DNA of 64,000 nt from SAR324 cluster bacterium (GCA_015231885.1 JADGAT010000012.1:5890-69889); one strand, 5' to 3'. Numbered from the stretch's first letter, positions 437-53,463 are shown. The notes: a model not told the origin generated them from the sequence alone. Translations and numbers: made by a program.

Positions 437-958
437 TTATGCTTTTTTAAGCTCCCCTTTCATATTTGACGCTACAAGTTTTCCTTCTTCAAATAAATGT
501 GCAAAATGTTCCCTGACTTTTTCGGGATTGAAGTCCAGAAACGTACCGCCTGAAGCAAAATGCTGGAGGAAAATTTTGCCAATTGCATAAGTGGACGCTC
601 CAGAGGCTAAAGGACTGGCTACCACTCCAACAACGGTTCCAAAAAATGGCAGCATCTTACTCGCGCTGACTCCTACTCGAGCAAGTCCGTTACTCCCTAA
701 TCCACCCACTAATGAGCCAATCGCTGATTTCCCCCAGTTTTTAGAAAATTCAATGCCGTATAATTTTGTCAATTGATCAAGCATGCGAAGTTGAACAGCA
801 GAGGTCCCCAATATGTCAACAATTGGGAATGGAATCAAGCCAACCCCCATGGACCATAAAACATTACTTTTGATGACCCCGTTTCCTTCTAATTCTTTGG
901 TTTTAAAATTGTCCGCAGTTTCTTCTACTGTACTTTCTTCTTCTTTTGCTTTTACCAT
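437..958 (-). CDS. Glycine-rich DUF697/EcsC-like domain protein (paralog 1 of 4 in the window)
   Basis: 173-aa ORF with an ATG start. Core NVLWSMGVGLIPFPIVDILGTSAVQLRMLDQLTKLYG...GGTFLDFNPEKV is shared with the ORFs at 1282-1773, 14912-15736 and 35115-35870. The family name is from memory and was not confirmed by HMM. Confidence 0.7.
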   Translation of the reverse strand: MVKAKEEESTVEETADNFKTKELEGNGVIKSNVLWSMGVGLIPFPIVDILGTSAVQLRMLDQLTKLYGIEFSKNWGKSAIGSLVGGLGSNGLARVGVSASKMLPFFGTVVGVVASPLASGASTYAIGKIFLQHFASGGTFLDFNPEKVREHFAHLFEEGKLVASNMKGELKKA

Positions 959-1281: not shown

Positions 1282-1773
1282 GTGGATGAAATAAAAGCCA
1301 ATCAAGTCCTGGAGTTAAATGCAGAGAAGATTATCAATAACAATGTACTATGGGCCATGGGACTGGGAATCATTCCTTTACCACTGATTAGTTTAGCGGG
1401 TACGAGTGTGGTGCAGTTAAGAATGATCTTTCAGCTTTCCGAGCTTTATGGAGTTGAATTCTCCGAAAATCGAGTAAAACTTATCATTGGGGCTTTGGCA
1501 GGTGGCCTGGGTACTGCTGTTTTGGCTCAATCCGCTATCAGCCTGCTCAAACCGATTCCATTTGTCAATTCTGTGGCGGTAATTGGTGGCATACCTCTGA
1601 TGATGGGGGCAACTACCTATGGGTTGGGTAAAGTATTCGACTTACATTTTTCATCGGGAGGGACACTCCTCGATTTTGATTTCAAAAAACTGAGAGCTTA
1701 CTTTGTGCAACAGATTGATGATGGGAAGAAAGTAGCAGCAACTTTGAAGAGAAAGTCAACTGCTTCAGGGTGA
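1282..1773 (+). CDS. Glycine-rich DUF697/EcsC-like domain protein (paralog 2), divergent from paralog 1
   Basis: 163 aa. GTG start at 1282 with an AAAAGGA SD about 8 nt upstream. Core NVLWAMGLGIIPLPLISLAGTSVVQLRMIFQLSELYG...GGTLLDFDFKKL. Confidence 0.7.
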   Translation: MDEIKANQVLELNAEKIINNNVLWAMGLGIIPLPLISLAGTSVVQLRMIFQLSELYGVEFSENRVKLIIGALAGGLGTAVLAQSAISLLKPIPFVNSVAVIGGIPLMMGATTYGLGKVFDLHFSSGGTLLDFDFKKLRAYFVQQIDDGKKVAATLKRKSTASG

Positions 1774-2957: not shown

Positions 2958-3734
2958 TTATCTTAGGGCAAAGAGCAGTTGGGTTAATTCTTGATGAAAC
3001 ATTTTCAGGAAGACTTCTTTTGAATCCTGAATAAAAAAGTGGCCTCCTTCTAACAGATGCAATTGAAAAGCAGCATAGGTGTGAATACCCCAGTCTTCGA
3101 GTTCCTCTGGAAGTGTACGATGATCTTTTAATCCCCCATAAGTGGTAATAGGACATTGGAGAGGAGGTTCCGGGGAATATTCATAATTCTCACAAAGCTG
3201 GAGATCTCTTTGCAGAGTAGGATACATCAATTCCATCATTTCGTGGTTGTTCAAGATTTCATCAGGAGTTCCCTGAAGTTGACGAAGGGTATCCAGGAAC
3301 TTCTCCGAAGGCAATTTGTGAAGAGGTGGAAAACGAGAGATCAACTGAGGTGCCCGGTGAGCAGAATTGAATAAATGTGATGGGCCAGGGCGCTGGTTTC
3401 GACGCAGATAGCGTGCCAATTCAAAGCTGACCAAAGCTCCCATACTGTGACCATAAAAGGCATAGGGACGATCCAGGTATCCTGAAAGCACTTCTCCTAA
3501 ATCATGAATGAGAAGATTGATGTCAGTATAGGTTGTTTCCTTGAAGCGATTTTCCCTGCCAGGAAGTAAAATCAGACAGACTTCGATGTCAGTCGGTAAA
3601 TGTTGAATCCATTGAGAAAACGAAGCAATTCCTCCTCCCGCGTGAGGGAAACAGAACAATCGTAATTTGGCGTGGGAAACAGGCTTGGGGATGACGATCC
3701 ACTGCTCGGGCTGTAGCATATGAGCATATTTCAT
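2958..3734 (-). CDS. Type II thioesterase (editing or release thioesterase for PKS/NRPS)
   Basis: 258 aa. FCFPHAGGG...YAFYGHSMGALVSFELA (GxSxG nucleophile elbow) is the classic TEII / GrsT-like signature. Confidence 0.85.
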   Translation of the reverse strand: MKYAHMLQPEQWIVIPKPVSHAKLRLFCFPHAGGGIASFSQWIQHLPTDIEVCLILLPGRENRFKETTYTDINLLIHDLGEVLSGYLDRPYAFYGHSMGALVSFELARYLRRNQRPGPSHLFNSAHRAPQLISRFPPLHKLPSEKFLDTLRQLQGTPDEILNNHEMMELMYPTLQRDLQLCENYEYSPEPPLQCPITTYGGLKDHRTLPEELEDWGIHTYAAFQLHLLEGGHFFIQDSKEVFLKMFHQELTQLLFALR

Positions 3735-11340: not shown

Positions 11341-11757
11341 CTAAGATTGTCCCTTATTTTGTTTTACTGCACCTGCATTTGAACTTTGATGTTGCACGAT
11401 GCCAACCAGGCCGGCAATGGTAGGAGCATGAAATAAATCGCGCAAAGCAAGCTTTAGATTCATTTCATTTTGGATCTTTGACACGAGCTGAGTCGTTTTC
11501 ACACTATGGCCACCACTTTCAAAGAAGTTGTAATCTGTTCCCGCCCGCCTGATCCCCAATATTTCCCCCCAAATCCAAGCCAGTTTTTTCTCTATGGGGG
11601 TTCGAGGCATCCGATATTGTGCGCCTGCTCCTTTTTCTTCTCGGGAAGGGAGAGGAAGTGCTTTTCGATTTACTTTCCCGGCGTGGGTTAGGGGGAGTTC
11701 ATCGAGTTTAATTCCCTGATCGCTCAAGTGAGAGAAACCAAAGGAATGTGTTTTTGA
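11341..11757 (-). pseudogene. Degenerate NRPS fragment: the last ~30 aa of an A domain (A10) plus a PCP. This is a module remnant with no upstream A-domain body.
   Basis: The minus-frame translation is open from 11757 and reads ...SDQGIKLDELPLTHAGKVNRKALP (A10 LPxTxxGKxDRKAL) then ...FFESGGHSVKTTQLVSKI (PCP core). A stop lies immediately upstream. The TTG at 11727 is the only candidate start. Confidence 0.7.
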
Positions 11758-11936: not shown

Positions 11937-12794
11937 CTAAAGATAATAACTCTCGAAACACCGTTCTAAGCATTCTACTTCTGTCTTACGGCAACTTACC
12001 TTGGCGTGCTCCAAAATCAGTTCAATATATTTGTCGGTATCGGTTTGCCCTAATTTACTCTGTACCGCCATTGTCAGTTCGTCTTGAGAAAAAATCTGAT
12101 CTTCCAAGGTGGCTATCTTTCTAATGATTACTTTTATATCAATTTCTTTGAGATCATCTATGCTGCCCAATGAAGTGTTCAAATCATCAAGAGAATCTTC
12201 CGTTAGCATGTAGCGTCCCAGTGAAGTATACCCGCGACATTTTGCCAATTCGATAGGGCAGTTTTGAACACATATTACGAAACTTCCCAGTTCGCGATGC
12301 CCGTGTTTTAATTTGAAGTTTCGAGTTGTTCGGATGGCACGGTTAATCTGTTTGGCAAGCCTCATTAACTCAAGAGTATATTCTTTGCGGCATGAACGTA
12401 GTCTCAGATGAATCGATTTAGTTGTTCCGTAACACTCCAGTCTTTCTAGAGTAATGTCTCTAAACTTTGATTCCACATTTTCGTGATCAGCCAAACCTTC
12501 GTCAATAAACCGTTTCGGAGGCTCTCTTTTCAATTTTGTTCTAGGATATGAACAATTATTTAGGCATTTGAAGGATTGGTCAAACGAAGAATATTTTGAA
12601 CAGTCGTTGAGGCAGCTGAAATATTCTTCCAGAGAGTCCTGGTAATTTGATTCAGGCAAAACGGAAGCGGAAGGATCTGTTTTTGGTGGGGGATTCTCTT
12701 GTTCCGCAAAGAGCAATCCGGGAAATAGAAAGATGGATAAAAATCCAAACAGCCGGAAATTGACAAGTCTCTTATGAATGTGACTTTCCACTTT
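11937..12794 (-). CDS. Secreted cysteine-rich protein (hypothetical)
   Basis: Probable start at the internal Met (MKVESHIHKRLVNFRLFGFLSIFLFPGLLFA / EQ signal peptide). Twin Cx3C pair CLNDC-x12-CLNNC plus five further Cys near the C-terminus (CVQNC, C-x6-C-x3-C). Confidence 0.5.
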   Translation of the reverse strand, partial: KVESHIHKRLVNFRLFGFLSIFLFPGLLFAEQENPPPKTDPSASVLPESNYQDSLEEYFSCLNDCSKYSSFDQSFKCLNNCSYPRTKLKREPPKRFIDEGLADHENVESKFRDITLERLECYGTTKSIHLRLRSCRKEYTLELMRLAKQINRAIRTTRNFKLKHGHRELGSFVICVQNCPIELAKCRGYTSLGRYMLTEDSLDDLNTSLGSIDDLKEIDIKVIIRKIATLEDQIFSQDELTMAVQSKLGQTDTDKYIELILEHAKVSCRKTEVECLERCFESYYL

Positions 12795-12915
12795 CATTCT
12801 TAACATTCCGGCTAGAAATATTTCCCTGCACCAAGAGCCAATAAATCTCTTATTTATGTATGTTTTTTTAATAAAGCACATTCTCGTTTACGACAGACTT
12901 CAGAAATCTCATGTT

Positions 12916-14911: not shown

Positions 14912-15736
14912 ATGTCGTTACCAAAAAAACGTAAAAAACTGGATGTATCCTCTGATGATAATGTTTCTCCCAGCCAAAAAAATAAGCCGGTTGCCGGGAA
15001 TAGGAATTCTAAAAAACCTGCAGATGAGCCTCCGGCCTCCTCATCTTTGAAATCCTCGCAGAAGCCATCTGTTAAAAGGAAAAGTAAGAACCAAGCTTCT
15101 TCACCTAAAACAGCAGCAACCGAAACTGAACTCTCTCAAGGTTTCAAACTGGCTGACAATCTGGAGGAGTCTTCGTTTGCTTCCGATGAGGCAGCAAACG
15201 AACTCGATCTGTCAGTCCCGGTCATTTCCGAAAAGTCATTGGAAAAACCCGCTTTCCCAAAAGATCAAAACGAGCAATCTTTGAAAGCCTCCCTGATCAC
15301 TGAAAAGTACGTGATCTTGGCAGTGGGAGCAGGATTGATCCCGGCTCCTTTTCTCGATATTGTACTGGCTTCTGGCATTCAGGTTAAACTGGTTGGGAAA
15401 TTGGCAAAACTCTATGAAAAGGACTTTTCACCTGCTCGGGCAAAATACATAATCACGGCACTAGGTGGAAACTATGCGGTGGGCGCTTCTTCTCTTTGGG
15501 GGGTCGCAAGCCTTGCTAAAATATTTCCTTTTATAGGAACTATTTTTGGAACAGCAACGATGCCTGCGGCGTTAGGAGCCTTTACCTATGCAGTTGGTGG
15601 GGTATTTTCTCGTTACTTTGAATTGGGAGGGACTTTGTCCGATTTTGATTCTTCCAAAAATCGAGCCTATTTTGAAAAGCAACTCCGGGATGGACAGCTG
15701 AGAGTCAACTCTGGTATTTCTCAAACCGGGAAATGA
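14912..15736 (+). CDS. Protein with a Lys/Ser/Pro-rich disordered N-terminus and a C-terminal DUF697/EcsC-like glycine-rich domain (paralog 3)
   Basis: Begins 21 nt after the ParA-like stop. The N-terminal 130 aa is basic then acidic and low-complexity (KKRKKLDVSSDD...KRKSKNQASSPK). The C-terminal domain ILAVGAGLIPAPFLDIVLASGIQVKLVGKLAKLY...GGTLSDFDSSKNRAYF is paralogous to 437-958, 1282-1773 and 35115-35870. Confidence 0.7.
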   Translation: MSLPKKRKKLDVSSDDNVSPSQKNKPVAGNRNSKKPADEPPASSSLKSSQKPSVKRKSKNQASSPKTAATETELSQGFKLADNLEESSFASDEAANELDLSVPVISEKSLEKPAFPKDQNEQSLKASLITEKYVILAVGAGLIPAPFLDIVLASGIQVKLVGKLAKLYEKDFSPARAKYIITALGGNYAVGASSLWGVASLAKIFPFIGTIFGTATMPAALGAFTYAVGGVFSRYFELGGTLSDFDSSKNRAYFEKQLRDGQLRVNSGISQTGK

Positions 15737-15954: not shown

Positions 15955-18900
15955 ATGAATAAAAATCTCGAGCACAAGTATCTTGAAGCACTCAAAAAAT
16001 CATCAGGAAAAATCAAAGAACTACTGGCTGAAATTGACACGTTAAAGCAAAGAGATTCTGTTGCTATCATTGGAATGGGGTGCCGTTTTGCAGGAGGAGC
16101 AGACAGTCCGGAAAGATTTTGGGATTTACTGAAAGAAGGAAGAGATACGATTGTTGAAGTTCCCCCGGACCGTTGGAATATTGACGAGTATTTTGATTCG
16201 AATATAGACGCTCCTGGAAAAATGTATTCCCGATATGGAGGATTTCTGGATGAAGTGGATAAGTTCGATTGTTCCTTTTTTGGAATTTCGCCTCGAGAAG
16301 CAGAATCCCTGGACCCTCAACACCGTCTTTTGCTGGAAGTTAGCTGGGAGGCACTTGAAAATGCTGGTCAAAGTGTTGAAGCCCTGAAAGAAAGTGCCAC
16401 AGGAGTTTACATCGGGATTTTCAGTTATGAATACGGAAGGGTCCGTTTGGTTGGAGGAGAAGAGCAGAAGATTGATGCCTATTCCGTCACGGGGGTATCC
16501 CACAGCATGGCTGCAGGAAGGATTTCCTATTTATTTGGATTTCAAGGGCCGAACATCGCTATAGACACTTCCTGTTCTTCGTCTTTGACCGGTTTGCATT
16601 TGGCTGTGGCCAGCTTACAAAGCAGGGAATCCGACCTCGCTCTGGCAGGCGGGGTTAATTTTATGATCTCGCCCGAGTGCCAAATTGGATTTTCAAAGCT
16701 CAATGCACTTTCCCCAGATGGGCACTGTAAAACTTTTGATGCTGCAGCTAACGGAATTGGGAGAGGTGAAGGATGCGGGATGGTTGTATTGAAACGTCTC
16801 TCGGATGCTATTTCAGATGGAGATTCGATTTTAGCCGTTATCAAGGGTAGTGCGATCAATCAGGATGGTTCCAGCAATGGATTGACAGCCCCTAACGGTA
16901 TTGCCCAACAGAAAGTAATTACTCAGGCACTGAAAAATGCACAACTTTCACCGGAAGACGTGAGCTATATTGAAGCTCATGGAACCGGCACTCCTCTGGG
17001 AGATCCTATCGAAATTCACTCTTTGGCAAAAGTCTTCAAAAATCAGGAACTGCTTGTGGGTTCCGTAAAAACAAATCTGGGACACCTGGAAAGTGCATCA
17101 GGTATCGCTGGCCTGATCAAAGTTCTTCTGTCAATCCAGCACGAGCAAATTCCTCCTCATCTTCATTTTCAAACTCCCAATCCTCATATCAATTGGAATG
17201 AATCGGCATTCAAAATTCCCACAGAAAACACCCCCTGGCCCAAAACTGCACGACCACGCATTGCTGGTATCAGTGCTTTCGGGTTGAGTGGAACCAATGC
17301 CCATGTCTTGGTCGGAGAACCCCCTGCTAACGATGATAGCTCAGAGGCTGAGCGTGATACTGGCGCTCAGGACCGTCCAGTTCACATTTTGAATCTTTCA
17401 GCAAAAAATAACGAAGCCCTTCACGAACTGGCTCATAAATACATAAAATATTTTGAGCAATTCGATTCAGATTCCGAAAGCGTAGCTGGAAATATCTGCT
17501 TTACTGCCAATGCGGGACGATCTCATTTTAAGCACCGAATTTCTCTGATTGGAGAATCCGTTCAGAAAATCGGAGAAAAATTATCGGATTATCTAAAAGG
17601 AATTCCACCAAAAGATTTTTTTCAAAGCAACGAGACTGAAAAACCCAGACTTCAAATTGTTTTTTTGTTCACGGGGCAGGGGTCACAATATAAAGGGATG
17701 GGGCTGGAGTTGTACAAAAGCCAACCGGTCTTTAAAAAGATACTCGATCAATGTGATCAACTGTTTACACCTCATCTGAATAGGTCGATCATAGATTTGA
17801 TGTATGCAGAAGAGACTCCGGAAGACCTGCTCGAGCAGACACGATATACCCAGGCAGTCATTTTTTCTATTGAATATGCTTTGGCCCGTTTATGGGAACA
17901 TTGGGGAATCAGAGCTGCTGCAGTGATGGGGCACAGTGTAGGAGAGTATGTTGCTGCCAGCATTGCCGGTGTGTTAAGCCTTGAAGACGCAGTCAAGCTC
18001 GTGGCAGCCAGAGGGAAGCTGATGCAGGCTCTGCCTGAAGGCATCATGGCTGCTGTTTTTGTAGAGGAAAGCATTGCTTTGGATGTGATAGCAGAGTTTG
18101 AAGAAAAAGTTTCTATTGCAGCAGTCAATTCTTCTAAAAACGTGGTGCTTTCTGGAGAAGAAGAAGCCGTGCTGCAGGTTCTGAAAAGATTTGACGAAAA
18201 AGGAATTGCTTCCCGCCATCGACTACTGAAAGTTTCACATGCGTTCCATTCGCCGATGATGGACCCGGTTCTGAACGAATTTAAAACCATTGCTTCAACG
18301 ATCCATTATTCAAAACCTAGACTTCCCCTGATATCCAATCTCACTGGAGAACCAGTCCGGATTTCGACAAATTCTTCTTCGGATGAATGGCCGGAGTACT
18401 GGACTCGCCATATTCGGGAAACCGTTCGTTTTTATGACTCGATCCAGTACTTGGAACAGAAAGATTATCAGATCTTTTTAGAAATTGGAGCAAGTCCCGT
18501 ACTTTCAGGTCTTGGAAGGCAAAGTGTTTCCCAAAATCACTTACTTTGGCTCCCCTCTCTTCGGCAGGGGCAAAGTGATTGGAATCAAATTTTAAGGTCA
18601 TTGGCTCAGTTGTATGTAAATGGGGCTAAAATTGACTGGGAGAGATTTGACAAACCTTATAGCCGGAAAAAACTAGCCCTGCCGACCTATCCGTTTCAAC
18701 GAAAACGCTACTGGGTCGCTCCTCCTCATCTTCACCGAAGTGGCGAAAAAAGTAGAGAAACTCTTGAATTTTCTCCCAATACACCCCAACCGACTGGAGA
18801 GGCAAAGTCGGTTCTGGAAAAGATGATGATCCAGCAGCACGAGACCATGAAAAAGCAGTTGGAGATTATGAGCATGCAGCTCAAAACTGCCAAAGCGCAA

Positions 18901-21900
18901 ACATCGGCCACTACCCGGAAAAATGAGGAAATTTCGTCCCCCCCTGAATTTTGCCTGGATCAAAAAAAAACTGAATTTAAAAGAAGCCTCAGCCACCGGA
19001 TGTCCTCCGGTCAAAAGCGTCTGTTCATCATCACCCAGTTTTCAGGAGGAGAAAGAAGTTATCATCTCTCAGGAGCCTGGTGGGTCAAGGGGACATTAGA
19101 CCTTCCCAAACTTGAGCAGTGCATTCAGCTGCTGATTGATCGTCATGAAAGCCTGCGGACAGGTTTTGTGATTGAGGAAGAGGAATGGGTTTGTCAAATT
19201 CATGAGCGGGTGCCGTTTGAAATTACGATGAAGGAAGCAGAGCACAGCAATGCTGATGGTCATGTTTCTGATTTTATTCAGGCTTTTGATTTGAGCAATC
19301 CCCCATTGATCAGGGTTGGACTGGTCCGCTTTTCAGAAGAGCGTTATCTGATGCTTGTGGACGCTCATCATATAGTTTTTGACGGACTTTCCATGAGCCT
19401 TTTTTCCAGGGAGCTGATGACGCTCTACCAGGGCTATCCCCTTCGAGCCCTGAGAGCCCAGTACCGGGACTATGTCTCCTGGCAGGAGAGTTTTTTTCAG
19501 GGCCATGCTTTCAGGCACCAGGAAACATACTGGCTGAATCAATTTTCCGGGGAGCTGCCCGTTTTGGATTTACCGCTGGACTACTCCCGTCCCTCCCTGT
19601 CGAGCTTTGAGAGGGCCGATGTCACGATTGAACTGGAAAGCGCTGAACTGATCGCTTTCAGCCAGTCTCAGGGCGTCTCGTTGTACATGGTTTTAGTTGC
19701 TGGCTATGATCTTTTATTGTCCCGTTTAACCGGGCAGGAGGAGATCATCATTGGCAGTGTCAGCACTCATCGAGCCGCAGAAGAGTTCAATGAGATCATT
19801 GGCATGATCACCAATACCCTGGCCCTGCGGGCTTTCCCGGAATCTCAAAAAACTTTTGACAGGTTTCTAAAGGAAGTCAAAACCATTTGTCTTGAGGCCT
19901 ATGCCCACCCTGATTATCCCTTTGAGCGGCTGGTTGAGCAACTGGGATATGCCCAGGCCCCCAACCGCCATCCGATCTTTGATACGATGTTTTCCTACGA
20001 AAAAGCGGATGAGCGGGTTTTAAGATTGAAGGATTTGGAAATCACTCCTTATTTTGAAAAACAAAGTTACATGTTTGATCTGGCTTTGGATGTGATTGAA
20101 CAGGAGGATCTGTTAAGATTTAATTTTGAATACGATGCCAGCCTTTTCAGGAAAGAAAGCATTGAAAGATTCTCGGGATATTTCATCAGAATTCTGCAGG
20201 AAGTCACGAGGGACCCGAAGCAGCAGCTGGGAGAGATTGAGATGCTCTCCGGGGAAGAAAAGCGGCAGATTCTGGAAACGCTCAACGCCACGGAGCGGGA
20301 TTATCCCGGAGAGAAAACGATTGTGGATTTGTTTGAGGAACAGGTTCTTCTGAGCCCTCAGAAAACCGCCCTTATTTTTGCGGATATTCGCCTGAGTTTC
20401 CATGAATTGAATGAGCGTGCGAACAAGGTCGCAGTCAATCTGAGAGAGAAATACCGGATTCGGCCGGAAGATCGAGTGGGAATTCTCCTGGATCGTTCTG
20501 AATGGATGGTGATTGCCATGCTGGGGATTCTCAAAGCCGGTGGGGCTTATGTTCCGATAGATCCGGACTTTCCCTCAAAACGAATCGATTACATTCTCAA
20601 AGACAGTCAGTGCCGGCTGGTGTTGACAGAAGAGTCAGTCAGAAGCAGGGTCACTCTGGATAAAACCGTTGAAGTCGCGGAGGTTTACTGGATTTCCACA
20701 GGAAAGGGCAGCAATCCGTCATCGTTGAGCCAAGCTTCCCATCTGGCTTATCTGATTTATACTTCCGGCTCCACAGGCAGTCCGAAAGGAGTGATGATCG
20801 AACACCGCAATGTGATCAGTTTCGCGAGTAATCTGAAATCGGGTTTCGGCATGCAGTCCAGTGACCGGATTTATGCTCTGACTCCGCTGAGTTTTGATAT
20901 TTCAGCACTGGAATTGATATGCAGCCTTGTCAATGGAATGGAAGTGACCCTGGCTTCAAAAGAAGAGCAGTCGGATCCAGACGCTGTTGCCGGGGTTTTA
21001 GAGAAGGGGGAGATCAGTGTTTTACAAATCACTCCCTCAAGACTGAGGTGGCTGCTTGAATCCCGGGAGATCGAACTTTTAAACACCCTGAATGTGCTTC
21101 TGGTGGGAGGAGAAGCGCTGCCTCAATCACTTTCCGAAAAGCTGTGTTTGCTTTCTCATCCCAAAATTTTCAATGTTTATGGCCCGACAGAAACGACAAT
21201 CTGGTCAACAGCCCATCAGCTGCTTGACCCGGGAGTCAGCATCGGCAGGCCGCTGCTGAATGAGGAGGTCTATATATTGTCAGAAAACAATCAACCGCAA
21301 CCTTATGGTGTTGCGGGGGAATTGTGCATTGGCGGTGCCGGGGTAGGGCGGGGTTATGTCAATCGCCCGGACTTAACTCAGCAGCAATTTATCGAGAATC
21401 CTTTTCGGGAAGGAGAAAGGCTTTACCGGACTGGAGATTTGGCCTGTTGGCTGCCGGAGGGACAGATCAGGTTTTTGGGAAGAAAAGACTCTCAGGTGAA
21501 AATAAGGGGCCACCGGATTGAGCCGGGAGAGATCGAGCAGGTGCTGCGGAAGTATCCCGAAGTAAGGGAAGCTGTCGTGATTGCCAGGGAAACTGAGGGC
21601 GGGCATCACGTTCTGGCGGCATATCTGGAGGGAGATCAGGAATGGGACAATCAGGCCCTGCGTGGATATTTATCAGAGCTTCTGCCAGAATATATGATTC
21701 CCTCTTCCTTTGTCCCCATGAAGCGGCTTCCTCTCAATTCCAGCGGAAAAATAGACAAACGGGCCCTGCCTGATCCTCAGGAAGGGTCCTTGATTTCCTC
21801 GACCTACGAGGCTCCGCGCAATCGGCTTGAAAAGGAACTGGTCGAGATCTGGGAAGAGATTCTCGGACAAAGTCCGATCGGGATTCATGACCATTTTTTT

Positions 21901-24900
21901 GAGCGGGGAGGGCACAGTCTGAAAACGGTTCAGCTCCTTTCCCGCATTCATAAGCGGCTTGAGCGGCAAGTTTCTTTGAAACAGATCTTCGCCACTGCGA
22001 CCATCGCAGGATTGGCTGAAGTGATTCAAGGGACGGATCACAGGGAGTTTGAGATGATTGAAACCGTGGCGGAGGCGGAGCATTATCCTCTTTCCCATGC
22101 CCAGAGGCGCTTGTGGGTCATGCATCAGCTGGAAGAAAGCTCCACCGCCTACAATGTGACCGGGGCTTTGCTGCTGAAAGGCAGCCTGGATCAAGGGGCT
22201 CTGCTTGAAGCCCTGAATACTCTTCTTCTTCGTCATGAGTCCCTGCGCACCACCTTTCTTCCTCATCAAGGAGAGCCACGCCAGAAAATTCATCAGTCCC
22301 CTGATCTTGATTGTGAGGAAATCGACCTAAGGGGTGAAATAGATGCCCATCAGAAAGCCCGTGCGATTGTCAGGGAGGAAGGACAGCGTTCTTTCATTTT
22401 AACAGCAGGACCCCTGATCCGTGTCAAATTACTGCAACTCGATAAAGCGGCACATGTGCTCGCAGTCAATCTGCACCACATCATCTGCGACGGATGGTCG
22501 CTTGGTGTGCTGACCCGTGAATTGGGAATGCTTTATCAGGCTTTTCACCGCCGTGAGGCCAACCCTTTAAAGCCGCTTCTGATTCAATACAAAGATTATA
22601 CAGCCTGGCAGGAAAACTGGCTCAAAAGCGAGGAGGCTGAGAAACAGCGGGCATACTGGCATGGACGTTTCTCAGGAGAATTAGCGGTTTTGGAATTGCC
22701 ACTCGACCGTCCCCGTCCGCTGGCACAGACTTTTCAGGGAAAGATTCTGCGCAAAGAGTTCAATGAGGCATTGAGCGAACAAATAAGAACATTGATGCGC
22801 CGGGAAGAGATGACCCTTTTTATGGGACTGCTGGCCCTGGTCAAGGTTTTGCTGTACCGCTACAGCGGACAGGAACAGATTATCGTGGGAAGCCCTGTTG
22901 CCGGCAGAAAACATCTCGATTTGGAAGAGCAGATCGGCTGTTATATCAATATGCTCCCCCTCAGTGATAAAATAGAAGGTTCTCAATCCTTTCAATCTTT
23001 TCTGGCTCAAGTCAGGCAAACTACAGAGGAAGCCTATCAGCACCAGGATTATCCATTTGATCAGCTTGTTGATGAACTGAATCCAGAGAGGGATCTTTCC
23101 CACTCTCCTCTCTTTGACGTGATCGTCTCCCTGCAAAATCAAGATCAGCCTCCTGTTCAACTGGAAGCGCTTTCCATAGAGGAGTTTTCCTTCTCCCTGG
23201 AAGTCAGCCGGTTGGACCTGACCTTCAATTTTATTGAACGGGAAAAAACACTGCTTTGTGAGATTGAGTACAATACCAGTTTGTTCGATCAAGAGCGAAT
23301 TGAGCGTATGGGAGATCATCTGGAAACCCTGGCGCATTCTGCAGTCAACAATATCACTCAATCAGTCGATACTCTGGAAATACTGACGGAGCAGGAAAAA
23401 CAGCAGTTGCTGTTGGCGTTCAACGCCACTCAAAGCGATTATCCGAAAGACAAATCAGTGGTTGAACTGTTTGAGGAACAAGTGCTCAAAACTCCTGAAG
23501 CCACGGCACTGGTCTTTGAAGAGACCCGTTTGACTTATCGTGAATTGAATCAGCGGGCCAATCAAATTGGGGTTTATTTGCGGGAGCAGTTTCAAGTTGA
23601 AGCGGATGATGTGGTGGGTGTTTTCACCGAACACTCCGAGAGGATGATTGTCGCTGTTCTCGGGATTCTCAAGTCCGGTGCGGCTTATTTGCCCATTGAT
23701 CCGTTATACCCGGATGAGCGTCTATTCCACATACTCCAGGAAGCCGAGCCCAAAATTATCTTTGCCGACACCACGGTGGAGACGCGTCTGGCCCAGTCGG
23801 GGATTCCCCTCTGCTCTCTGGAGCTGAATCCTGAAATTGAATCGAGATCTCAGGACAACCTGCCGATTATCTGCACTCCCAGAGCGCTGGCATACATCAT
23901 ATACACGTCGGGGACAACGGGAAATCCGAAAGGCTCTTTGATTGAACACCAATCCATTGTGCGTTTGGTCAAAAACACCAATTACATTGAGATCACGCCT
24001 TCAGACCGAATTTTACAAACAGGGTCCCTCGCATTTGATGCTTCCACTCTTGAAATCTGGGGAGCCCTGCTCAATGGAGCTGAACTGCATATTGCCAGAG
24101 AAGACAGTTTGCTCAATCCCGCTGAGTTCCGCAAAATACTTGCTCAAAATCAAATCTCCATTATCTGGCTGACCGCGGGCTTGTTCAATCAATTCATTGA
24201 TACTGATCCGGAAATGTTCTCCGGTCTTAAACAGCTTTTTACTGGAGGAGAAAAACTTTCTCCCGTTCATATCACTAAGGCTCGGCAAAACCATCCTGCT
24301 TTGATGATTACCAATGGATATGGACCCACAGAAAACACAACCTTCAGTACTTGCTACCAAATAGAAAAGGAATTCGACAAGGATATTCCCATTGGCAAAC
24401 CCGTTTCCAATACACGCGCTTATATTCTGGGCAACGCCAATCAATTGCAGCCTATCGGAATAGTTGGTGAATTGTGTTTTGCTGGCGATGGTCTGGCCAG
24501 GGGTTATCTGAAAAATGAGCAGCTTAGCCGGGAAAAATTTGTTGCCAATCCGTTTGAACCCGGCGAGAGAATGTACCGCACCGGTGATTTCTGCCGCTGG
24601 GATGCTGAGGGTAATATCGAAATATTGGGACGTATAGACGATCAGGTCAAAATAAGAGGATACCGTGTTGAATTGGGAGAGATCGAACACACGCTGCAGA
24701 GCCATACCCATGTCCAGGAAGCCGTGGTCATTGTCAGGGAAGTAGAAGGGGCATCCAAAGAATTAATTGCCTACCTCGTCGGAAATCAGAAATTGAGTGT
24801 GGCTGATTTATCGCAGTTTCTCTCAAAAACTTTACCCAACTACATGATCCCTTCCTACTTCGTTCAGATGGATCAACTCCCGCTCAATCCGAGTGGTAAA

Positions 24901-26601
24901 ATTGACAAGCGGGCGTTGCCGGATCCTGATGAAGGAACACGGTCTTCTTCTGCTGTTTATGAAGCCCCGCACAATTCTTTGCAAAGCCATCTGATCCGAT
25001 TGTGGGAAGAAACACTGGGACAGAGCCCAATTGGGATTCATGATAATTTTTTTGAGAGAGGCGGTCATAGCTTGAAGGCAATTCAGCTGCTTTCTCGAAT
25101 TCACCAGCAATTGGAAATAAGCGTTGGTCTGAAAGATATTTTTATGGCCACTACTGTTGCTAAACTGGCGGAATTGGTACAAAGCAATAACCCCAGGCAA
25201 TTCAAAGCGATTCAACCAATAGCGATTGCTGAGCATTACGAACTATCATATGCTCAAAGACGATTGTGGCTTTCTCATCAATTGGAAGAAAATCCAATTG
25301 CCTACAATGTTGCTGATGCCATGCTTTTGGAAGGGGATTTAGATACAGAAGCTCTTTATAAAGCGCTTAAAACACTGGTAGAACGTCATGAATCCTTGCG
25401 GACTACCTTTCTAAATATTGCTGGAGAACCCCGACAAAAAATCCATCAAAGCCTGGATTTAAAAATGGATGAGATCGATTTGACTGAGGAAAAAGATGTG
25501 TTTCAACTGGCAGAGGAAATCGTACAGAAAGAAGGACATCGCCTGTTTGATTTAGCAGCAGGTCCCTTGGTTCGGGTGAATTTATTGATGCTAAAACCGG
25601 CCCTTCATGTGCTGGTAATCAGCCTTCATCATATCATCTGTGATGGATGGTCTATTGAAATTCTGATTCGGGAACTGGGTGTCCTTTATCAGGCTTTTCA
25701 CCGGGGAGAAAGCTGCCTTTTGACACCGCTATCTATTCAGTACAAAGACTATGCGGCCTGGCAGAAGAACTGGCTATCCAGTCCTCAAGCAGAGCAGGAA
25801 CAAAATTATTGGCACAAACAACTGTCCGGTTCCCTGCCTGTTCTGAAATTACCAACAGACCGTCCTCGTCCCTCCGTTCAGAAATTTCAGGGAAAATCCA
25901 TTTGGATTGATTTTGATCCGGAACTGACAGCGAAAATACAAAATTTGCTGCATCAACAGGAAGTGACATTATTCATGGCATTGATAAGCATCATCAAAGT
26001 TTTGTTGTATCGATATAGCGGCGAAGAAGACATTCTGATTGGTATTCCCGTTGCCGGAAGAAATCATGTTGCTTTGGAAGATCAAATAGGTTGTTATCTC
26101 AATACTCTGGTCTTGAGAGACACTGTTAAAGGAGAGGAATCCTTTGAAGTGTTGCTCTCAAAGATCAAGCAAACTACTCTGGAAGCCTTTCAACACCAGG
26201 AATATCCCTTTGACCACCTGTTGGATGAATTGAATCTTGAAAGAAATTTAGCCCACTCTCCACTCTTTGATGTCATGGTTGTTTTGCAGAATCAGGGGCA
26301 ATCCCATTTGGAGCTGGATGAATTGACAGTTAAGCCCTTTCCTTTTTCACTGGAAGTGAGCAAATTTGACATAGCATTCAATTTTATGGAAGAAGAGGAT
26401 CGGCTGCTCTGTGAAGTTATCTTCAATACAGTACTATTTGATGAGGAACGCATTCGCCGCATGGAGGAACATTTTGAAATGCTGATTCGCTCTATCACAG
26501 AGGATATCGCTCAACCCATCCACTCCCTGCAATTGTTAGCTGAACAAAAAGAGCCGAAAGTACTGGAGAGCATCGAAGTTTCAACCCATTTCAATTTTTA
26601 A
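15955..26601 (+). CDS. Hybrid PKS-NRPS megasynthase: KS-AT-(no ACP)-C-A(Gly code)-PCP-C-A(Val-like code)-PCP-C
   Basis: KS motifs DTSCSSSL, EAHGTGT, NLGHLESASG (~16057-17335). AT motifs GHSVGEY and VSHAFHS, a malonyl-type signature (~17650-18720). C1 HHIVFDG at 19363-19386. A1 motifs A3 LAYLIYTSGSTGSPKG through A10 NSSGKIDKRALP, pocket D-I-L-Q-L-G-V-I-W. PCP1 FFERGGHSLK (~21895). C2 YPLSHAQRRLW / HHIICDG (~22080-23380). A2 pocket D-A-L-W-F-G-G-T-F. PCP2 (~25050). C3 (~25230-26598, HHIICDG at 25627). Confidence 0.95.
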   Translation: MNKNLEHKYLEALKKSSGKIKELLAEIDTLKQRDSVAIIGMGCRFAGGADSPERFWDLLKEGRDTIVEVPPDRWNIDEYFDSNIDAPGKMYSRYGGFLDEVDKFDCSFFGISPREAESLDPQHRLLLEVSWEALENAGQSVEALKESATGVYIGIFSYEYGRVRLVGGEEQKIDAYSVTGVSHSMAAGRISYLFGFQGPNIAIDTSCSSSLTGLHLAVASLQSRESDLALAGGVNFMISPECQIGFSKLNALSPDGHCKTFDAAANGIGRGEGCGMVVLKRLSDAISDGDSILAVIKGSAINQDGSSNGLTAPNGIAQQKVITQALKNAQLSPEDVSYIEAHGTGTPLGDPIEIHSLAKVFKNQELLVGSVKTNLGHLESASGIAGLIKVLLSIQHEQIPPHLHFQTPNPHINWNESAFKIPTENTPWPKTARPRIAGISAFGLSGTNAHVLVGEPPANDDSSEAERDTGAQDRPVHILNLSAKNNEALHELAHKYIKYFEQFDSDSESVAGNICFTANAGRSHFKHRISLIGESVQKIGEKLSDYLKGIPPKDFFQSNETEKPRLQIVFLFTGQGSQYKGMGLELYKSQPVFKKILDQCDQLFTPHLNRSIIDLMYAEETPEDLLEQTRYTQAVIFSIEYALARLWEHWGIRAAAVMGHSVGEYVAASIAGVLSLEDAVKLVAARGKLMQALPEGIMAAVFVEESIALDVIAEFEEKVSIAAVNSSKNVVLSGEEEAVLQVLKRFDEKGIASRHRLLKVSHAFHSPMMDPVLNEFKTIASTIHYSKPRLPLISNLTGEPVRISTNSSSDEWPEYWTRHIRETVRFYDSIQYLEQKDYQIFLEIGASPVLSGLGRQSVSQNHLLWLPSLRQGQSDWNQILRSLAQLYVNGAKIDWERFDKPYSRKKLALPTYPFQRKRYWVAPPHLHRSGEKSRETLEFSPNTPQPTGEAKSVLEKMMIQQHETMKKQLEIMSMQLKTAKAQTSATTRKNEEISSPPEFCLDQKKTEFKRSLSHRMSSGQKRLFIITQFSGGERSYHLSGAWWVKGTLDLPKLEQCIQLLIDRHESLRTGFVIEEEEWVCQIHERVPFEITMKEAEHSNADGHVSDFIQAFDLSNPPLIRVGLVRFSEERYLMLVDAHHIVFDGLSMSLFSRELMTLYQGYPLRALRAQYRDYVSWQESFFQGHAFRHQETYWLNQFSGELPVLDLPLDYSRPSLSSFERADVTIELESAELIAFSQSQGVSLYMVLVAGYDLLLSRLTGQEEIIIGSVSTHRAAEEFNEIIGMITNTLALRAFPESQKTFDRFLKEVKTICLEAYAHPDYPFERLVEQLGYAQAPNRHPIFDTMFSYEKADERVLRLKDLEITPYFEKQSYMFDLALDVIEQEDLLRFNFEYDASLFRKESIERFSGYFIRILQEVTRDPKQQLGEIEMLSGEEKRQILETLNATERDYPGEKTIVDLFEEQVLLSPQKTALIFADIRLSFHELNERANKVAVNLREKYRIRPEDRVGILLDRSEWMVIAMLGILKAGGAYVPIDPDFPSKRIDYILKDSQCRLVLTEESVRSRVTLDKTVEVAEVYWISTGKGSNPSSLSQASHLAYLIYTSGSTGSPKGVMIEHRNVISFASNLKSGFGMQSSDRIYALTPLSFDISALELICSLVNGMEVTLASKEEQSDPDAVAGVLEKGEISVLQITPSRLRWLLESREIELLNTLNVLLVGGEALPQSLSEKLCLLSHPKIFNVYGPTETTIWSTAHQLLDPGVSIGRPLLNEEVYILSENNQPQPYGVAGELCIGGAGVGRGYVNRPDLTQQQFIENPFREGERLYRTGDLACWLPEGQIRFLGRKDSQVKIRGHRIEPGEIEQVLRKYPEVREAVVIARETEGGHHVLAAYLEGDQEWDNQALRGYLSELLPEYMIPSSFVPMKRLPLNSSGKIDKRALPDPQEGSLISSTYEAPRNRLEKELVEIWEEILGQSPIGIHDHFFERGGHSLKTVQLLSRIHKRLERQVSLKQIFATATIAGLAEVIQGTDHREFEMIETVAEAEHYPLSHAQRRLWVMHQLEESSTAYNVTGALLLKGSLDQGALLEALNTLLLRHESLRTTFLPHQGEPRQKIHQSPDLDCEEIDLRGEIDAHQKARAIVREEGQRSFILTAGPLIRVKLLQLDKAAHVLAVNLHHIICDGWSLGVLTRELGMLYQAFHRREANPLKPLLIQYKDYTAWQENWLKSEEAEKQRAYWHGRFSGELAVLELPLDRPRPLAQTFQGKILRKEFNEALSEQIRTLMRREEMTLFMGLLALVKVLLYRYSGQEQIIVGSPVAGRKHLDLEEQIGCYINMLPLSDKIEGSQSFQSFLAQVRQTTEEAYQHQDYPFDQLVDELNPERDLSHSPLFDVIVSLQNQDQPPVQLEALSIEEFSFSLEVSRLDLTFNFIEREKTLLCEIEYNTSLFDQERIERMGDHLETLAHSAVNNITQSVDTLEILTEQEKQQLLLAFNATQSDYPKDKSVVELFEEQVLKTPEATALVFEETRLTYRELNQRANQIGVYLREQFQVEADDVVGVFTEHSERMIVAVLGILKSGAAYLPIDPLYPDERLFHILQEAEPKIIFADTTVETRLAQSGIPLCSLELNPEIESRSQDNLPIICTPRALAYIIYTSGTTGNPKGSLIEHQSIVRLVKNTNYIEITPSDRILQTGSLAFDASTLEIWGALLNGAELHIAREDSLLNPAEFRKILAQNQISIIWLTAGLFNQFIDTDPEMFSGLKQLFTGGEKLSPVHITKARQNHPALMITNGYGPTENTTFSTCYQIEKEFDKDIPIGKPVSNTRAYILGNANQLQPIGIVGELCFAGDGLARGYLKNEQLSREKFVANPFEPGERMYRTGDFCRWDAEGNIEILGRIDDQVKIRGYRVELGEIEHTLQSHTHVQEAVVIVREVEGASKELIAYLVGNQKLSVADLSQFLSKTLPNYMIPSYFVQMDQLPLNPSGKIDKRALPDPDEGTRSSSAVYEAPHNSLQSHLIRLWEETLGQSPIGIHDNFFERGGHSLKAIQLLSRIHQQLEISVGLKDIFMATTVAKLAELVQSNNPRQFKAIQPIAIAEHYELSYAQRRLWLSHQLEENPIAYNVADAMLLEGDLDTEALYKALKTLVERHESLRTTFLNIAGEPRQKIHQSLDLKMDEIDLTEEKDVFQLAEEIVQKEGHRLFDLAAGPLVRVNLLMLKPALHVLVISLHHIICDGWSIEILIRELGVLYQAFHRGESCLLTPLSIQYKDYAAWQKNWLSSPQAEQEQNYWHKQLSGSLPVLKLPTDRPRPSVQKFQGKSIWIDFDPELTAKIQNLLHQQEVTLFMALISIIKVLLYRYSGEEDILIGIPVAGRNHVALEDQIGCYLNTLVLRDTVKGEESFEVLLSKIKQTTLEAFQHQEYPFDHLLDELNLERNLAHSPLFDVMVVLQNQGQSHLELDELTVKPFPFSLEVSKFDIAFNFMEEEDRLLCEVIFNTVLFDEERIRRMEEHFEMLIRSITEDIAQPIHSLQLLAEQKEPKVLESIEVSTHFNF

Positions 26602-26635
26602 TCACTAAGGATAAACCGATTCTATTGGAGTCACT

Positions 26636-27350
26636 ATGGACAATTCACGTATTTCTTTAACCAGCAGTGAGTATGGTCATTTCAAGGATTTTTGGAGTAA
26701 ACAACTGCGTCTCCTGGATGATTCGTTTCAATTCACGCTCAATAAATCGGTAGGTTCCCAGACTCGTCAAATGAAACAGATCTCGTTTTGTTTGGAAGTT
26801 TCTCAGCAGGAAACCATTTCCGATATCACCAGGGACAGTCCTTTAGAAACTTTTATCATCCTGTTGTCAGCTTACTATATTCTTCTTTCTCGATATATGA
26901 ATACAAATGAGGTTGTGGTCAATACTCCACTCCTCTCCCAAAAAAGCATTGACACTCTCTATGCACCGCATGTTTCCCTGATTGGCAGCATTTCACCGGA
27001 AGACAGCCTCAAGGATCTGATCATTAAAACCAATCAGACGGTTTCGAATAGTTACACTCATCAAAATTTTCCTTTAGATTTGGTGACCAGTCAAAAGCAA
27101 TTAAAACACCTCGATCAGTTGACCAATGTATTCATGACATTTGATGAGATTCACAGGGCACCTGAAGATTTGGGACTCTATGATTTCGTCATTGAGATCA
27201 ATCGTCCTCCGGAATCCCTCCTCACTCAGATTAAGATCAGATACAATGCAGGCATGTTTGATGAGCCTTTCATGCTCAATTTGATCACACATTACAAAAA
27301 TATCGTTTCTGATTTTAAAGATCTCAAATCTAGTCTCAAGAATGTGAAGA
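26636..27350 (+). other. Partial condensation domain (C-terminal subdomain only) at the N-terminus of the 26636-32254 NRPS
   Basis: The sequence aligns to the post-HHxxxDG portion of the intact C domains in the upstream gene (YKDYTAWQ region onward). No HHxxxDG is present. The upstream gene already ends with a complete C domain. Confidence 0.7.
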
Positions 27351-45523: not shown

Positions 45524-48500
45524 ATAGAAATTCATCGTCCCCTGACTCTCAAGCCCTCATGAAAAAGGCTTTGCTTGAGCTTCGAGAAATGAAAGGTCAG
45601 CTCAATCATGTCGAGTATGCTAAAAAGGAGCCTATCGCCATTATTGGAATAGGATGCCGGTTTCCTGGAGGATCCAATAGCCCGGACGCTTTTTGGTCAC
45701 TGTTGCGCGAAGGTCAGGATGCCATAAGGGAGATTCCTTCTGACCGGTGGGATATTGAGGAATACTTTAATCCGGAGCCGGATGTTCCCGGAAAGATGTA
45801 CACCCGTTACGGCGGATTTTTGGACTCTGTAGATTCCTTTGATGGTCCATTCTTTGGGCTTTCTCCCCGAGAAACAGTCAATACTGACCCGCAGCACCGT
45901 TTGATCCTGGAAGTTGCCTGGGAAGCTCTGGAGCATGCCAATCAAGTTCCAGAACAATTATTTGGCAGTGCTACCGGAGTCTTTGTTGGTATGACAACCT
46001 TCGACTATTCCATTTGTTTGGTAAAACAAGGAGTGGCCAATATTGACACTTATTTTGCCATAGGAAACGGATTCAATTCAGCTTCCGGGAGACTTTCCTA
46101 TCTCCTTGGATTGACTGGACCCAGCATGGCGATCGATTCTGCCTGTTCTTCCTCTTTAACGACAGTTCATTTGGCTTGTCAGAGTTTGCGCAACAGGGAA
46201 TGCAATCTCGCCCTGGCAGGGGGAGTTAATTTAATGATTACTCCGGAGATCAATATCAATTTTTCCCGCACTCAAATGCTGTCCCCAGATTGTCGTTGTC
46301 ATACTTTTGACGCGGCTGCCAATGGCTATGTGCGAGGTGAAGGCTGTGGAATGCTCGTCCTCAAACGCCTCTCCGATGCAAAAGCGGATGGCGATCAGAT
46401 TTTGGCTCTGGTTCGAGGATCGGCAGTGAATCAGGATGGTGCCAGCGGAGGGTTAACCGTTCCCAGTGGACCTTCCCAGGAAAAAGTTTTTCGTCAGGCT
46501 CTGGAAAATGCCGGGGTTGATCCAGGCCGGGTCAGTTATATCGAAACCCACGGCACTGGGACTCCTCTTGGAGATCCGATTGAGGTCAGTGCTATTGGAA
46601 ACGCCTATTGCGAAGCTCCCCGGGAATCACCTTTGATGATTGGTTCGGTAAAAACAAATATTGGCCATCTGGAAGCAGCTGCTGGGGTTGTTGGTATGAT
46701 CAAGGTTGTTCTCGCTCTCCAAAATGAAAAAATTCCACCCCATTTGAATTTTAAAGAACCCAATCCTCATATTCCCTGGGAGGAAATTCAAGTGGAAGTT
46801 CCCACTGAACTGAAAGAGTGGCCCCGAAGGGAAAATCCCAGATTGGCAGGAATCAGTGGATTTGGCATCAGTGGCAGCAATGCCCATATTATCATGGAGG
46901 AAGCACCTTTAGAAAATCATGAAAAATCAGAATTGGCGACACAAACACCTGGGAATAAAGTAGAACGTCCACTGCACATCTTGACCCTTTCGGCCAAGAC
47001 TGAAGAAGCCTTACGCCAGCTGACCGAACGCTACAAAACCCTCTTGAGTGAAAGGAGCGATATAGATTTGGCGGACCTTTGCTATACAGCGAACAAATAC
47101 CGGTCTCGCTTCAATCATCGCATGAGTGTGGTCAGTTCCTCATGTGCTGATTTAAAGAAACAATTGGCCGATTTTTCAGAAGGCAAGGAAATTCCGAAAT
47201 CAATCCAGGGTCCTTATAAAGGTCTGAGCCAACCGAAGGTTGCCTTTTTATTCACGGGGCAAGGGGCTCAATACATCAACATGGGACGTCAACTATACGA
47301 AACTCAGTCAAATTTCCGCCAAACGATGGACCGTTGCGATGAAATACTACGTCCCTGCCTTCAGAAAAGATTGCTGGAAGTTCTCTACCCTCAAGAGGGC
47401 TCACAATCTGATTCTTCTGAAATAAATGAGACGGCCTATACACAGCCGGCATTATTCTCTCTGGAATATGCGTTATTTGAATTGTGGAACTCCTGGGGAA
47501 TCAAACCATCGGCAGTGATGGGGCATAGCGTGGGGGAATATGCAGCTGCGTGTGCAGCAGGAGTCTTTTCTCTGGAAGATGGATTGAAATTAATTGCCGA
47601 GCGGGGACGGTTGATGCAAGCCTTACCCCGCAATGGAGAAATGGCCGTTGTATTTGCCAAAGAGTCCCTTGTGGAAGAAGCCATTAAGCCTTATTCTGAG
47701 AAGGTTTCCATTGCTGCAATCAATGGTCCCAAAAATGTTGTTATATCTGGAGATCAGCAAAGGATAGAGGCCCTTTGCTCTGAACTGGGAAATCAGGAGA
47801 TCAGGACAAAGCGTTTAACCGTTTCTCATGCGTTTCATTCACCCCTGATGGACCCTATGTTGGCTGATTTTGAACAAGTTGCCGGAAAGGTGACATATTC
47901 TGCTCCATTCCTGAGCCTGGTTTCCAACGTGACCGGAAATTTTGTGTCAGATGAGGTCACGACCCCTGAATACTGGGTCCGACACCTACGTCAGGCAGTC
48001 AGGTTTTCAAACAGCATCGAGACCCTTCACCAACAGGGTTTTAAAACTTTTTTAGAAATTGGCCCCAAACCCGTTCTTCTGGGAATGGCCCGGCATTGTT
48101 TATCAGAGGGTGAAGAAAAATGGCTGCCGAGCCTACGTGAAAACCAGGACTGGCAGCAGCTTCTATTCACCTTGGGGGAATTATCGGCACAAGGAGTCTC
48201 TGTCAGCTGGTCGGAGTTTGAAAATGGATATCAGCGTCGCCGGGTGACTCTTCCCTCCTATCCGTTTCAACATCAGCGATACTGGTATGAACCGGTTGAA
48301 TTGGAAAACAAACAAGTTGTCCGCAATCAAAACACCCGTAATCATTATACCCATCCTTTGCTGGGGCAGCGTCTGCTTTCCGCATTGAAAGAAATTCAAT
48401 ATGAATCCAGGCTTTATGCAGATTCCCCGGGGTTTTTAAAAGATCATCGGGTTTTTCAAAGTGTGATTTTTCCTGCTGCAGCCTATCTGGAAATAGCATT

Positions 48501-51207: not shown

Positions 51208-51212
51208 GCAGT

Positions 51213-52259: not shown

Positions 52260-52284
52260 CAATAATTTGATAGTCAATATAGGT

Positions 52285-53148: not shown

Positions 53149-53150
53149 AA

Positions 53151-53459
53151 ATGGAGAAAGTTGTCCTCATGCATGAAAAAATCGTGGATATCATTGTTGG
53201 AGAATCGAAAGAAGTGAATAAAAAACTGAAAAACAAAATTTCTGTAGAACTAAGGGAAGCGGCCCCGCTTTTTGGGGAAAACGGAATTTTGGATTCGATC
53301 GCCTTAGTCACATTACTGGTTGCTGTCGAACAATCAGTGGAAGACGAATTCGATTTTCCTGTAATTTTGGCAGATGAAAAAGCAATGTCCCAAAAAAACA
53401 GTCCATACCAATCGATTGGTGCATTAGCCCAATATGTGGGCAGCCTGTTGAAGGAATAA
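53151..53459 (+). CDS. Stand-alone acyl carrier protein
   Basis: 102 aa. Phosphopantetheine-attachment context GILDSIALVTLL. Acidic helix II. Confidence 0.8.
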   Translation: MEKVVLMHEKIVDIIVGESKEVNKKLKNKISVELREAAPLFGENGILDSIALVTLLVAVEQSVEDEFDFPVILADEKAMSQKNSPYQSIGALAQYVGSLLKE

Positions 53460-53463
53460 GCTC

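Follow-up and report, generated by a model that had tools for sequence, protein, structure and literature searches.

A ketosynthase-acyltransferase didomain joined to a condensation domain without a carrier protein in a SAR324 hybrid megasynthase

In beta-amino modules of assembly lines that are part polyketide synthase (PKS) and part non-ribosomal peptide synthetase (NRPS), a ketosynthase (KS) and an acyltransferase (AT) are followed by an acyl carrier protein (ACP), an aminotransferase (AMT) and a condensation (C) domain; PuwE, of the puwainaphycin pathway, is a characterised analogue (PMC4219810). A survey of PLP domains across assembly lines lists subunits of the order CP-PLP-C (carrier protein, pyridoxal phosphate-dependent domain, C domain; PMC3870968). 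Junctions between the subunits of cis-AT PKSs lie for the most part between modules according to a review of docking domains, which does not mention a split between AT and ACP (PMC9113145). We analysed 64,000 nucleotides of DNA from a SAR324 cluster bacterium (GCA_015231885.1, JADGAT010000012.1:5890-69889; hereafter the window), in which a KS-AT didomain runs into a C domain with no ACP in between. The didomain opens the open reading frame (ORF) at 15955-26601 (+), a single unbroken frame of 3548 residues that we call protein A, whose Pfam domain order is KS-AT-[gap]-C-A-T-C-A-T-C, A and T being adenylation and thiolation domains. We propose, with about even confidence, that this is the orphaned but intact KS-AT half of a split beta-amino module, recombined onto a foreign NRPS block.

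The KS and the AT are those of a canonical cis-AT type I elongation module. The KS (16054-17169, +; aa 34-405; PF00109 and PF02801) has a complete triad, with Cys207 in DTSCSSS, His342 in EAHGTGT and His377 in NLGHLE, and no KSQ or KS0 signature was found in it; the first-pass annotation of this DNA had likewise held that the KS is not of the KSQ type. A KS-AT linker (aa 408-549) leads to the AT (17659-18717, + with its post-AT linker; PF00698 at aa 569-891), whose motifs are whole (GQGSQ; GHSVGE, with Ser661; RGKLM; HAFHS, aa 762-766), HAFHS marking it as malonyl type. The post-AT motif YPFQRKRYWV occupies aa 912-921 (nt 18688-18717). The first C domain (C1; 19000-20319, +) starts at about aa 1016, is an ordinary, DCL-like domain according to Pfam and carries SSGQKRLF (aa 1017-1024) and an intact HHIVFDG (aa 1138-1144). 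These motifs, and the post-AT linker, lie where the first-pass annotation had placed them. Pfam finds three Condensation and two AMP-binding domains in protein A, and two PP-binding domains only, each after an A domain (about aa 1972-2025 and 3013-3075). The ACP that a canonical cis-AT elongation module has downstream of the AT on the same polypeptide is missing. Pfam finds no class III aminotransferase (PF00202) in protein A either and, since ACP and AMT are both absent from it, the product cannot gain a beta-amino group by this route.

Three independent tests agree that a carrier between the AT and C1 is truly absent. The gap between the two domains (aa 922-1015; 18718-18999, +) measures about 95 residues. 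When aa 849-1115 were scanned alone against Pfam at E<=10, the C domain was recovered and no PP-binding domain. A custom profile, made from eleven PKS ACPs and run with all filters off, detected no carrier in the linker or in the six frames of 18600-19100 (top score -2.3 bits); as a control, it recovered the first T domain (T1) of the same protein at 33 bits. Finally, the AlphaFold2 (AF2) model of aa 905-1030, predicted from the single sequence, contains one helix (aa 948-986, pLDDT up to 98), the remainder being disordered, and no four-helix bundle. A cryptic or frameshifted ACP in the linker is ruled out by these results. The claims that no ACP stands in cis between the AT and the C domain, and that a didomain with no carrier in cis cannot hold its own extension product, are thus borne out. 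The first-pass annotation had also described the linker as about 95 residues of low complexity; the length holds, the description only in part, since a conserved helix of 39 residues lies inside.

No close homologue of the AT-C junction was found in our protein collection, where every match spanning both AT and C has a PP-binding domain in between. An exhaustive phmmer search with aa 921-1130 returned no other helix-C junction, the top 150 matches all being ordinary T-C junctions, and a genome scan for closer relatives returned distant C domains only. We found nothing in the literature specifically on KS-AT-C without ACP, or on SAR324 PKS-NRPS clusters. The missing domains are not found elsewhere in the 64 kb: tblastn with four ACP-AMT queries detected no AMT, and PKS-type ACPs are confined to three PKS subunits (C, D and E, described below), with no extra one.

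The origin of the didomain is suggested by the helix in the linker (SVLEKMMIQQHETMKKQLEIMSMQL; 18796-18912, +), which was recognised by AF2, by alignments and by tblastn. Met and Gln recur in it every seven residues (M958/M965/M972 and Q961/Q968/Q975). It is homologous both to the C-terminal tail of split KS-AT subunits, as in P0006, P0047 and P0082, and to the helix that follows the ACP in ACP-AMT partner subunits, including the second gene of contig L050; tblastn with the helix gave a match of 52% identity (E 4.5e-8). Contig L050 comes from a SAR324 metagenome-assembled genome (MAG) and encodes P0006, a protein of 1008 aa that is the top match of the KS-AT (67% identity, the KS alone being likewise 67% identical). 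P0006 ends a few residues past its helix (SSLEKMMNQQHQTLRKQMEVMSRQL), which aligns with SVLEKMMIQQHETMKKQLEIMSMQL. The second gene starts 120 bp downstream and begins with a PP-binding domain (E 1e-15), followed by a second copy of the helix (QSVLEKMVALQNETMRKQLEFMSMQL) and by a segment resembling the N-terminus of an AMT, where the contig ends. Two metagenomic loci have the same layout with paired helices: KS-AT-helix(stop) | ACP-helix-AMT-monooxygenase-C in L054, and ACP-KS-AT-helix(stop) | 276-aa gene | ACP-helix-AMT-C in L055. The partner gene begins at most about 1.3 kb downstream in all three relatives: no gene intervenes in L050 or L054, and a single small one does in L055. The fused protein P0051 (AT-ACP-helix-AMT-C) has the post-ACP helix only, and two Nitrospirae loci, L002 and L005, encode canonical KS-AT-ACP-AMT-C-A-T proteins. 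The ACPs of these two (aa 969-1035 and 986-1052) read GLVSLM in place of the usual GxDSL, with Val for Asp before the phosphopantetheinyl Ser. A search with the ACP-helix fragment of the SAR324 MAG gave no match.

On these comparisons of sequence and gene order, the KS-AT of protein A belongs to a family in which the ACP is normally carried by a separate subunit. In protein A, as in the split subunits, the Met/Gln-heptad helix lies 30-60 residues past the post-AT motif; the stop codon and the ACP-first gene that follow it there are lacking, the frame running on into C1 and no partner being present in the window. The heptad periodicity and the paired occurrence of the helices suggest that they form a coiled-coil docking element. 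The paired helices around the AT | ACP split of aminotransferase-containing modules are a candidate docking system that the docking-domain review does not cover (PMC9113145).

The base composition of gene A changes at the same place. We located breaks in G+C content at third codon positions (GC3) by likelihood change-point analysis of the gene, with a 2-lnL support interval and 200 permutations. The strongest change falls at codon 949 (nt 18799; log likelihood ratio 28), a value that none of the 200 permutations reached. GC3 is 0.387 over codons 1-948, 0.538 over codons 949-2681 and 0.422 over codons 2682-3548, compared with 0.36-0.455 in all other genes of the window and with 0.38-0.49 in 400-codon windows of the other five megasynthase genes. 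The middle segment (18799-23997, +), which comprises the helix, C1, A1, T1, C2 and the first part of A2, is therefore compositionally foreign; its right edge, at about codon 2682, is poorly fixed (codons 2641-2993). Gene order points to the same left edge. L050 is syntenic with the window, with order and orientation alike, through genes for Band_7 (80% identity), ParA-like (73%), DUF697 (45%) and KS-AT (67%) proteins, and this synteny stops at the helix, where the GC3 break lies and where a stop codon and then the ACP come in the relatives. We therefore take the support interval of the change point (codons 936-960; 18760-18834, +) as the left recombination junction, and read the AT-C junction as a probable breakpoint at which the foreign block replaced an ACP-AMT partner. 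The helix itself reads as a mosaic, LEKMMxQQH resembling the tail copy and ETMxKQLExMSMQL the post-ACP copy. The joins at both ends of the block are in frame and the domain order is coherent. T1-C2 (aa ~1950-2490) and T2-C3 (aa ~3000-3545) are clearly paralogous (repeat pair 22453-22622 and 25606-25775) yet differ in GC3 (0.54 and 0.42), which suggests that the block came from a related cluster. The order of ParA-like, DUF697 and KS-AT genes is also kept in the SAR324 MAG.

In the relatives the module is spread over two subunits, KS-AT-helix and, after it, ACP-helix-aminotransferase-C; the extension ACP therefore always acts in trans and is presumably recruited through the paired Met/Gln-heptad helices. 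A recombination in or just before the helix would have put a foreign helix-C1-A1-T1-C2 segment, with part of A2, in frame behind the KS-AT, displacing the ACP-AMT partner and leaving the KS-AT fused to an ordinary, peptide-bond-forming C domain. The acyl donor of C1 would then have to ride on the carrier of another polypeptide, and the most plausible carrier to reach the KS of protein A is the ACP of PKS subunit E (KS-AT-DH-KR-ACP; 45520-51207). This ACP, with its C-terminal docking tail (50860-51204, +), was found by Pfam and scores 87.5 bits against the ACP profile. Among the PKS tails of the window only the acidic one of E is left unpaired, and protein A starts with a coiled-coil (MNKNLEHKYLEALKKSSGKIKELLAEIDTLKQRD; 15955-16053, +) like those at the N-termini of D and E, with which the tail could pair. 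The N- and C-terminal tails suggest a subunit order of C to D to E to A; since the ACP of E would have to dock on the N-terminus of protein A anyway, it is the best candidate. It might hand its chain straight to C1, the KS-AT being bypassed and kept as a docking and dimerisation scaffold. Alternatively, the AT might reload it for one more malonyl extension, and C1 would then take a beta-ketoacyl chain.

We count in favour of an orphaned KS-AT half the three tests for a carrier, the orthology with L050, the split loci, the GC3 change point, the mosaic helix, the lack of an AMT, of an extra ACP and of repeats, the docking tails and other scars nearby, namely a half C domain at the start of the next protein (B) and an orphan A10-PCP fragment. 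Several observations weigh against it. The mosaic rests on about 30 residues. There is a single close relative, of whose second gene the contig covers just 660 bp. The KS-AT evolves at the rate of its SAR324 orthologue (relative-rate tests with eleven outgroups; for example, 54 and 51 unique substitutions), and this absence of acceleration is as compatible with continued function as with a recent event. C1 is not specifically of the post-AMT type, so that an ancestral AMT at exactly this position is not demonstrated: its nearest homologues (<=44% identity) are at internal T-C-A junctions of NRPSs of Paenibacillus, Clostridium and Bacillus, none of these nearest database homologues contains PF00202, and it groups with the post-AMT C domains of Nitrospirae L002 and L005 in a neighbour-joining tree with 55% bootstrap only. 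We accordingly dropped C1 as a diagnostic post-AMT domain. We also rejected it as a starter (lipoinitiation) C domain, the top homologues being internal elongation C domains with a YPLSSAQKRMY-type N-terminus; with the C domain at the N-terminus of protein F it shares only 22% identity.

The first-pass annotation had reasoned that either a carrier acting in trans or a non-canonical role is required, which stands, and had proposed as an obvious candidate the small ORF at 53151-53459 (+; 102 aa), which does not fare well. Malonylation of its product by the AT of protein A, for use by the KS in trans, has in our view a very slim chance. The ORF has the motif GILDSIAL, with GILDS at the start of a predicted helix, and matches NCBIfam DltC weakly (E 0.0018; 18 bits, where the cut-off is 68), and cis-AT KS-AT didomains such as those of DEBS are able to use stand-alone ACPs in vitro; it has, however, no Pfam match at E<=1, PP-binding included, no match to a PDB sequence and 2.3 bits against the PKS-ACP profile. 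The single-sequence AF2 model, poor and of low confidence, gave no meaningful fold match. The ORF also lacks the helix motif and lies 27 kb away, within a cassette of FabH, sulfotransferase, FabG and AMP-ligase genes; it more likely serves the adjacent AMP-ligase, its natural partner, than the KS-AT. Another theoretical carrier is the orphan NRPS fragment at 11341-11727 (-), which consists of an A10 motif (LPLTHAGKVNRKALP) and a peptidyl carrier protein (PCP) with GGHS (FFESGGHSVKTTQL; ACP profile E 8.6e-8). It begins abruptly, with AT-rich non-coding DNA directly 5', and sits where the left-hand synteny with L050 breaks; an L050 protein of 817 aa is matched by ORF 11937-12881 over its aa 1-257 only. 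We regard the fragment as a relic of rearrangement, from which a free PCP of 89 aa could be made from Met40.

A carrier could instead be encoded beyond the 64-kb window. The module would then be permuted but complete, an ACP-helix(-AMT) subunit docking on the helix and shuttling between KS, AT, possibly AMT, and C1, with a beta-keto or beta-amino extension as the result. Every relative seen has its ACP on another polypeptide with a matching helix, the helix is retained in protein A and predicted with high confidence, the active sites of KS and AT are intact and their rate of change equals that of the SAR324 orthologue, and the cluster appears to reach the right edge of the window. Yet we judge this unlikely, because neither an AMT nor an additional PKS-type ACP is found in 16 kb upstream or 37 kb downstream, which compares badly with the distance of about 1.3 kb or less in all three relatives, and because the composition changes at the helix, a sign that the native DNA downstream was exchanged for other DNA and did not simply move. 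The assembly line could also be broken here, the cluster or module being a non-functional relic that awaits decay. The inserted block has kept its own GC3, without amelioration, and this implies that the event is recent; conservation of the KS-AT can then not separate a domain still in use from one that has not yet decayed, and the equal branch lengths against the 11 outgroups, by which we rejected relaxed constraint, are uninformative for this reason. Further scars (the half C domain, the orphan A10-PCP fragment and a C-T module without A domain) point the same way. Against this, none of the six megasynthase ORFs (1282-3548 aa) is damaged and their catalytic motifs are present, both joins keep the frame, and the phosphopantetheinyl transferase (PPTase), a type II thioesterase (TE) and a transporter are retained, so that we hold a dead cluster to be rather doubtful. 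An artefact of assembly, by which a chimeric join or a collapsed repeat removed an ACP, would account for the shift in composition at the junction as well, and the DNA is probably from a metagenome, since the genome and protein collections that were searched do not contain the locus. Such an artefact would require two joins, both in frame by chance and the second within an A domain, that yield a coherent C-A-T-C-A-T-C order, and on both sides of the block the DNA has native composition and a SAR324-like context (DUF697 paralogues, docking-compatible PKS subunits). The first-pass annotation had raised the possibility of a collapsed repeat; no collapsible repeat was found in 15955-32254, the longest direct repeat being 170 nt at 74% identity, and the window has one copy of the helix only. 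On these two results we rejected a collapsed repeat, and an artefact of any kind seems highly improbable. Recombination of an orphaned KS-AT half onto a foreign NRPS block remains the explanation that we prefer.

Two megasynthase blocks are present in the window. Block 1 consists of proteins A and B. Protein B (26636-32254) has half a C domain, an A domain with radical-SAM and B12-binding domains inserted into it, a T and a C. The opening half C (26636-27400) is the C-terminal half of the domain (model 188-456), though protein A ends in a complete C; it is either a further recombination scar or a docking remnant. The A domain is split between positions ~99 and 151 of the Pfam model (a2-a3 region) by about 560 aa, especially 27926-29425, and the intervening stretch has Radical_SAM at aa 436-597 and, after it, B12-binding at aa 776-887. 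The insert looks like an embedded cobalamin-dependent radical SAM enzyme with the two domains in the reverse of the order typical of class B methylases; we found no paper that joins interrupted adenylation and radical SAM. Block 2 comprises C (A-KR-ACP), D and E (each KS-AT-DH-KR-ACP), a cassette, protein F, a HadB-like gene and the PPTase. The cassette (51204-55505) encodes a FabH-like KAS III, a sulfotransferase, the 102-aa DltC-like ORF, a FabG-like SDR and an AMP-ligase. As called, the ORFs of FabH and the sulfotransferase overlap by 128 nt, which makes it probable that translation of the latter begins farther downstream. The ligase, a stand-alone MenE/FadD-like protein (54165-55505), lies just upstream of protein F (55518-61670; C-T-C-A-T-C), whose first module lacks an A domain. 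Next to the Sfp-type PPTase is a gene for a HadB-like 2-hydroxyacyl-CoA dehydratase subunit (HGD-D; 61696-62898), for which neither a partner subunit nor an activator is visible before the end of the window. Four DUF697-like paralogues are found, at 437-958 (-), 1282-1773 (+), 14912-15736 (+) and 35115-35870 (+), two of them directly 5' of the two megasynthase blocks.

Should the fused enzyme prove active, a cis-AT KS-AT would be working in an assembly line with no carrier reserved for it, which would challenge the rule of one module, one carrier, and the heptad helix would offer PKS-NRPS engineering a fusion site that nature tolerates. Should it prove inactive, the locus still records a clearly dated recombination event with breakpoints mapped by composition and synteny, and shows megasynthases being rebuilt at linkers and docking helices. 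Module skipping and iterative carrier reuse occur in modular PKSs, and in enacyloxin biosynthesis the chain passes from a KS0 to a carrier and on to a C domain. In these cases, as would be required of protein A, no dedicated carrier in cis brings the chain to a C domain or to the next module, or a carrier is used twice; however, the skipped module retains its ACP, or a dedicated stand-alone carrier is encoded, and neither is visible at protein A. MycA (mycosubtilin), ItuA (iturin), McyE (microcystin), PuwE and the Nitrospirae proteins of L002 and L005, all KS-AT-ACP-AMT-C, resemble protein A in the clade of their KS-AT and in the DCL-like C domain and NRPS modules downstream of it, and differ from it in having the ACP and the aminotransferase; where such modules carry the helix (P0051, L054, L055 and L050), it sits between ACP and AMT. 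The split variant (L050, L054, L055 and the CP-PLP-C subunits of PMC3870968) has the same heptad helix at the C-terminus of its KS-AT subunit, and in L050 an orthologous KS-AT (67%) and the same upstream synteny. In protein A, by contrast, there is neither a stop after the helix nor a partner gene, and the helix runs into a C domain of foreign composition. Split modules of trans-AT PKSs resemble this family in that an intramodular subunit junction is bridged by short helical docking domains, although their junctions are KS/KR, KS/DH and DH/KR, unlike an AT/ACP split (PMC9113145).

The nearest parallel to an ACP-less fusion is P0068 of Anabaena sp. UHCC 0204 (L051, 10001-13819), with the order KS-AT-helix(VNLVQQQLEVMSQQLETL)-TE and no ACP in the protein. 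Like protein A, it joins a cis-AT KS-AT and a related helix, without ACP, to a chain-processing domain; it differs in having a thioesterase in place of the C domain and a more divergent helix. No spare ACP was found in the visible Anabaena locus, where one ACP and a docking tail close each of the two PKS subunits upstream. It is conceivable, though we think it rather improbable, that the helix is a so far undescribed docking element within modules of cis-AT PKSs by which a KS-AT recruits a carrier from another polypeptide; it would then support functional, ACP-less elongation here and, independently, in the Anabaena protein, each KS-AT borrowing the upstream ACP and the beta-ketoacyl chain being passed straight to C or TE. 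As a second example, the Anabaena fusion keeps such a functional reading alive, and ACP-less KS-AT-helix fusions may be more than a one-off.

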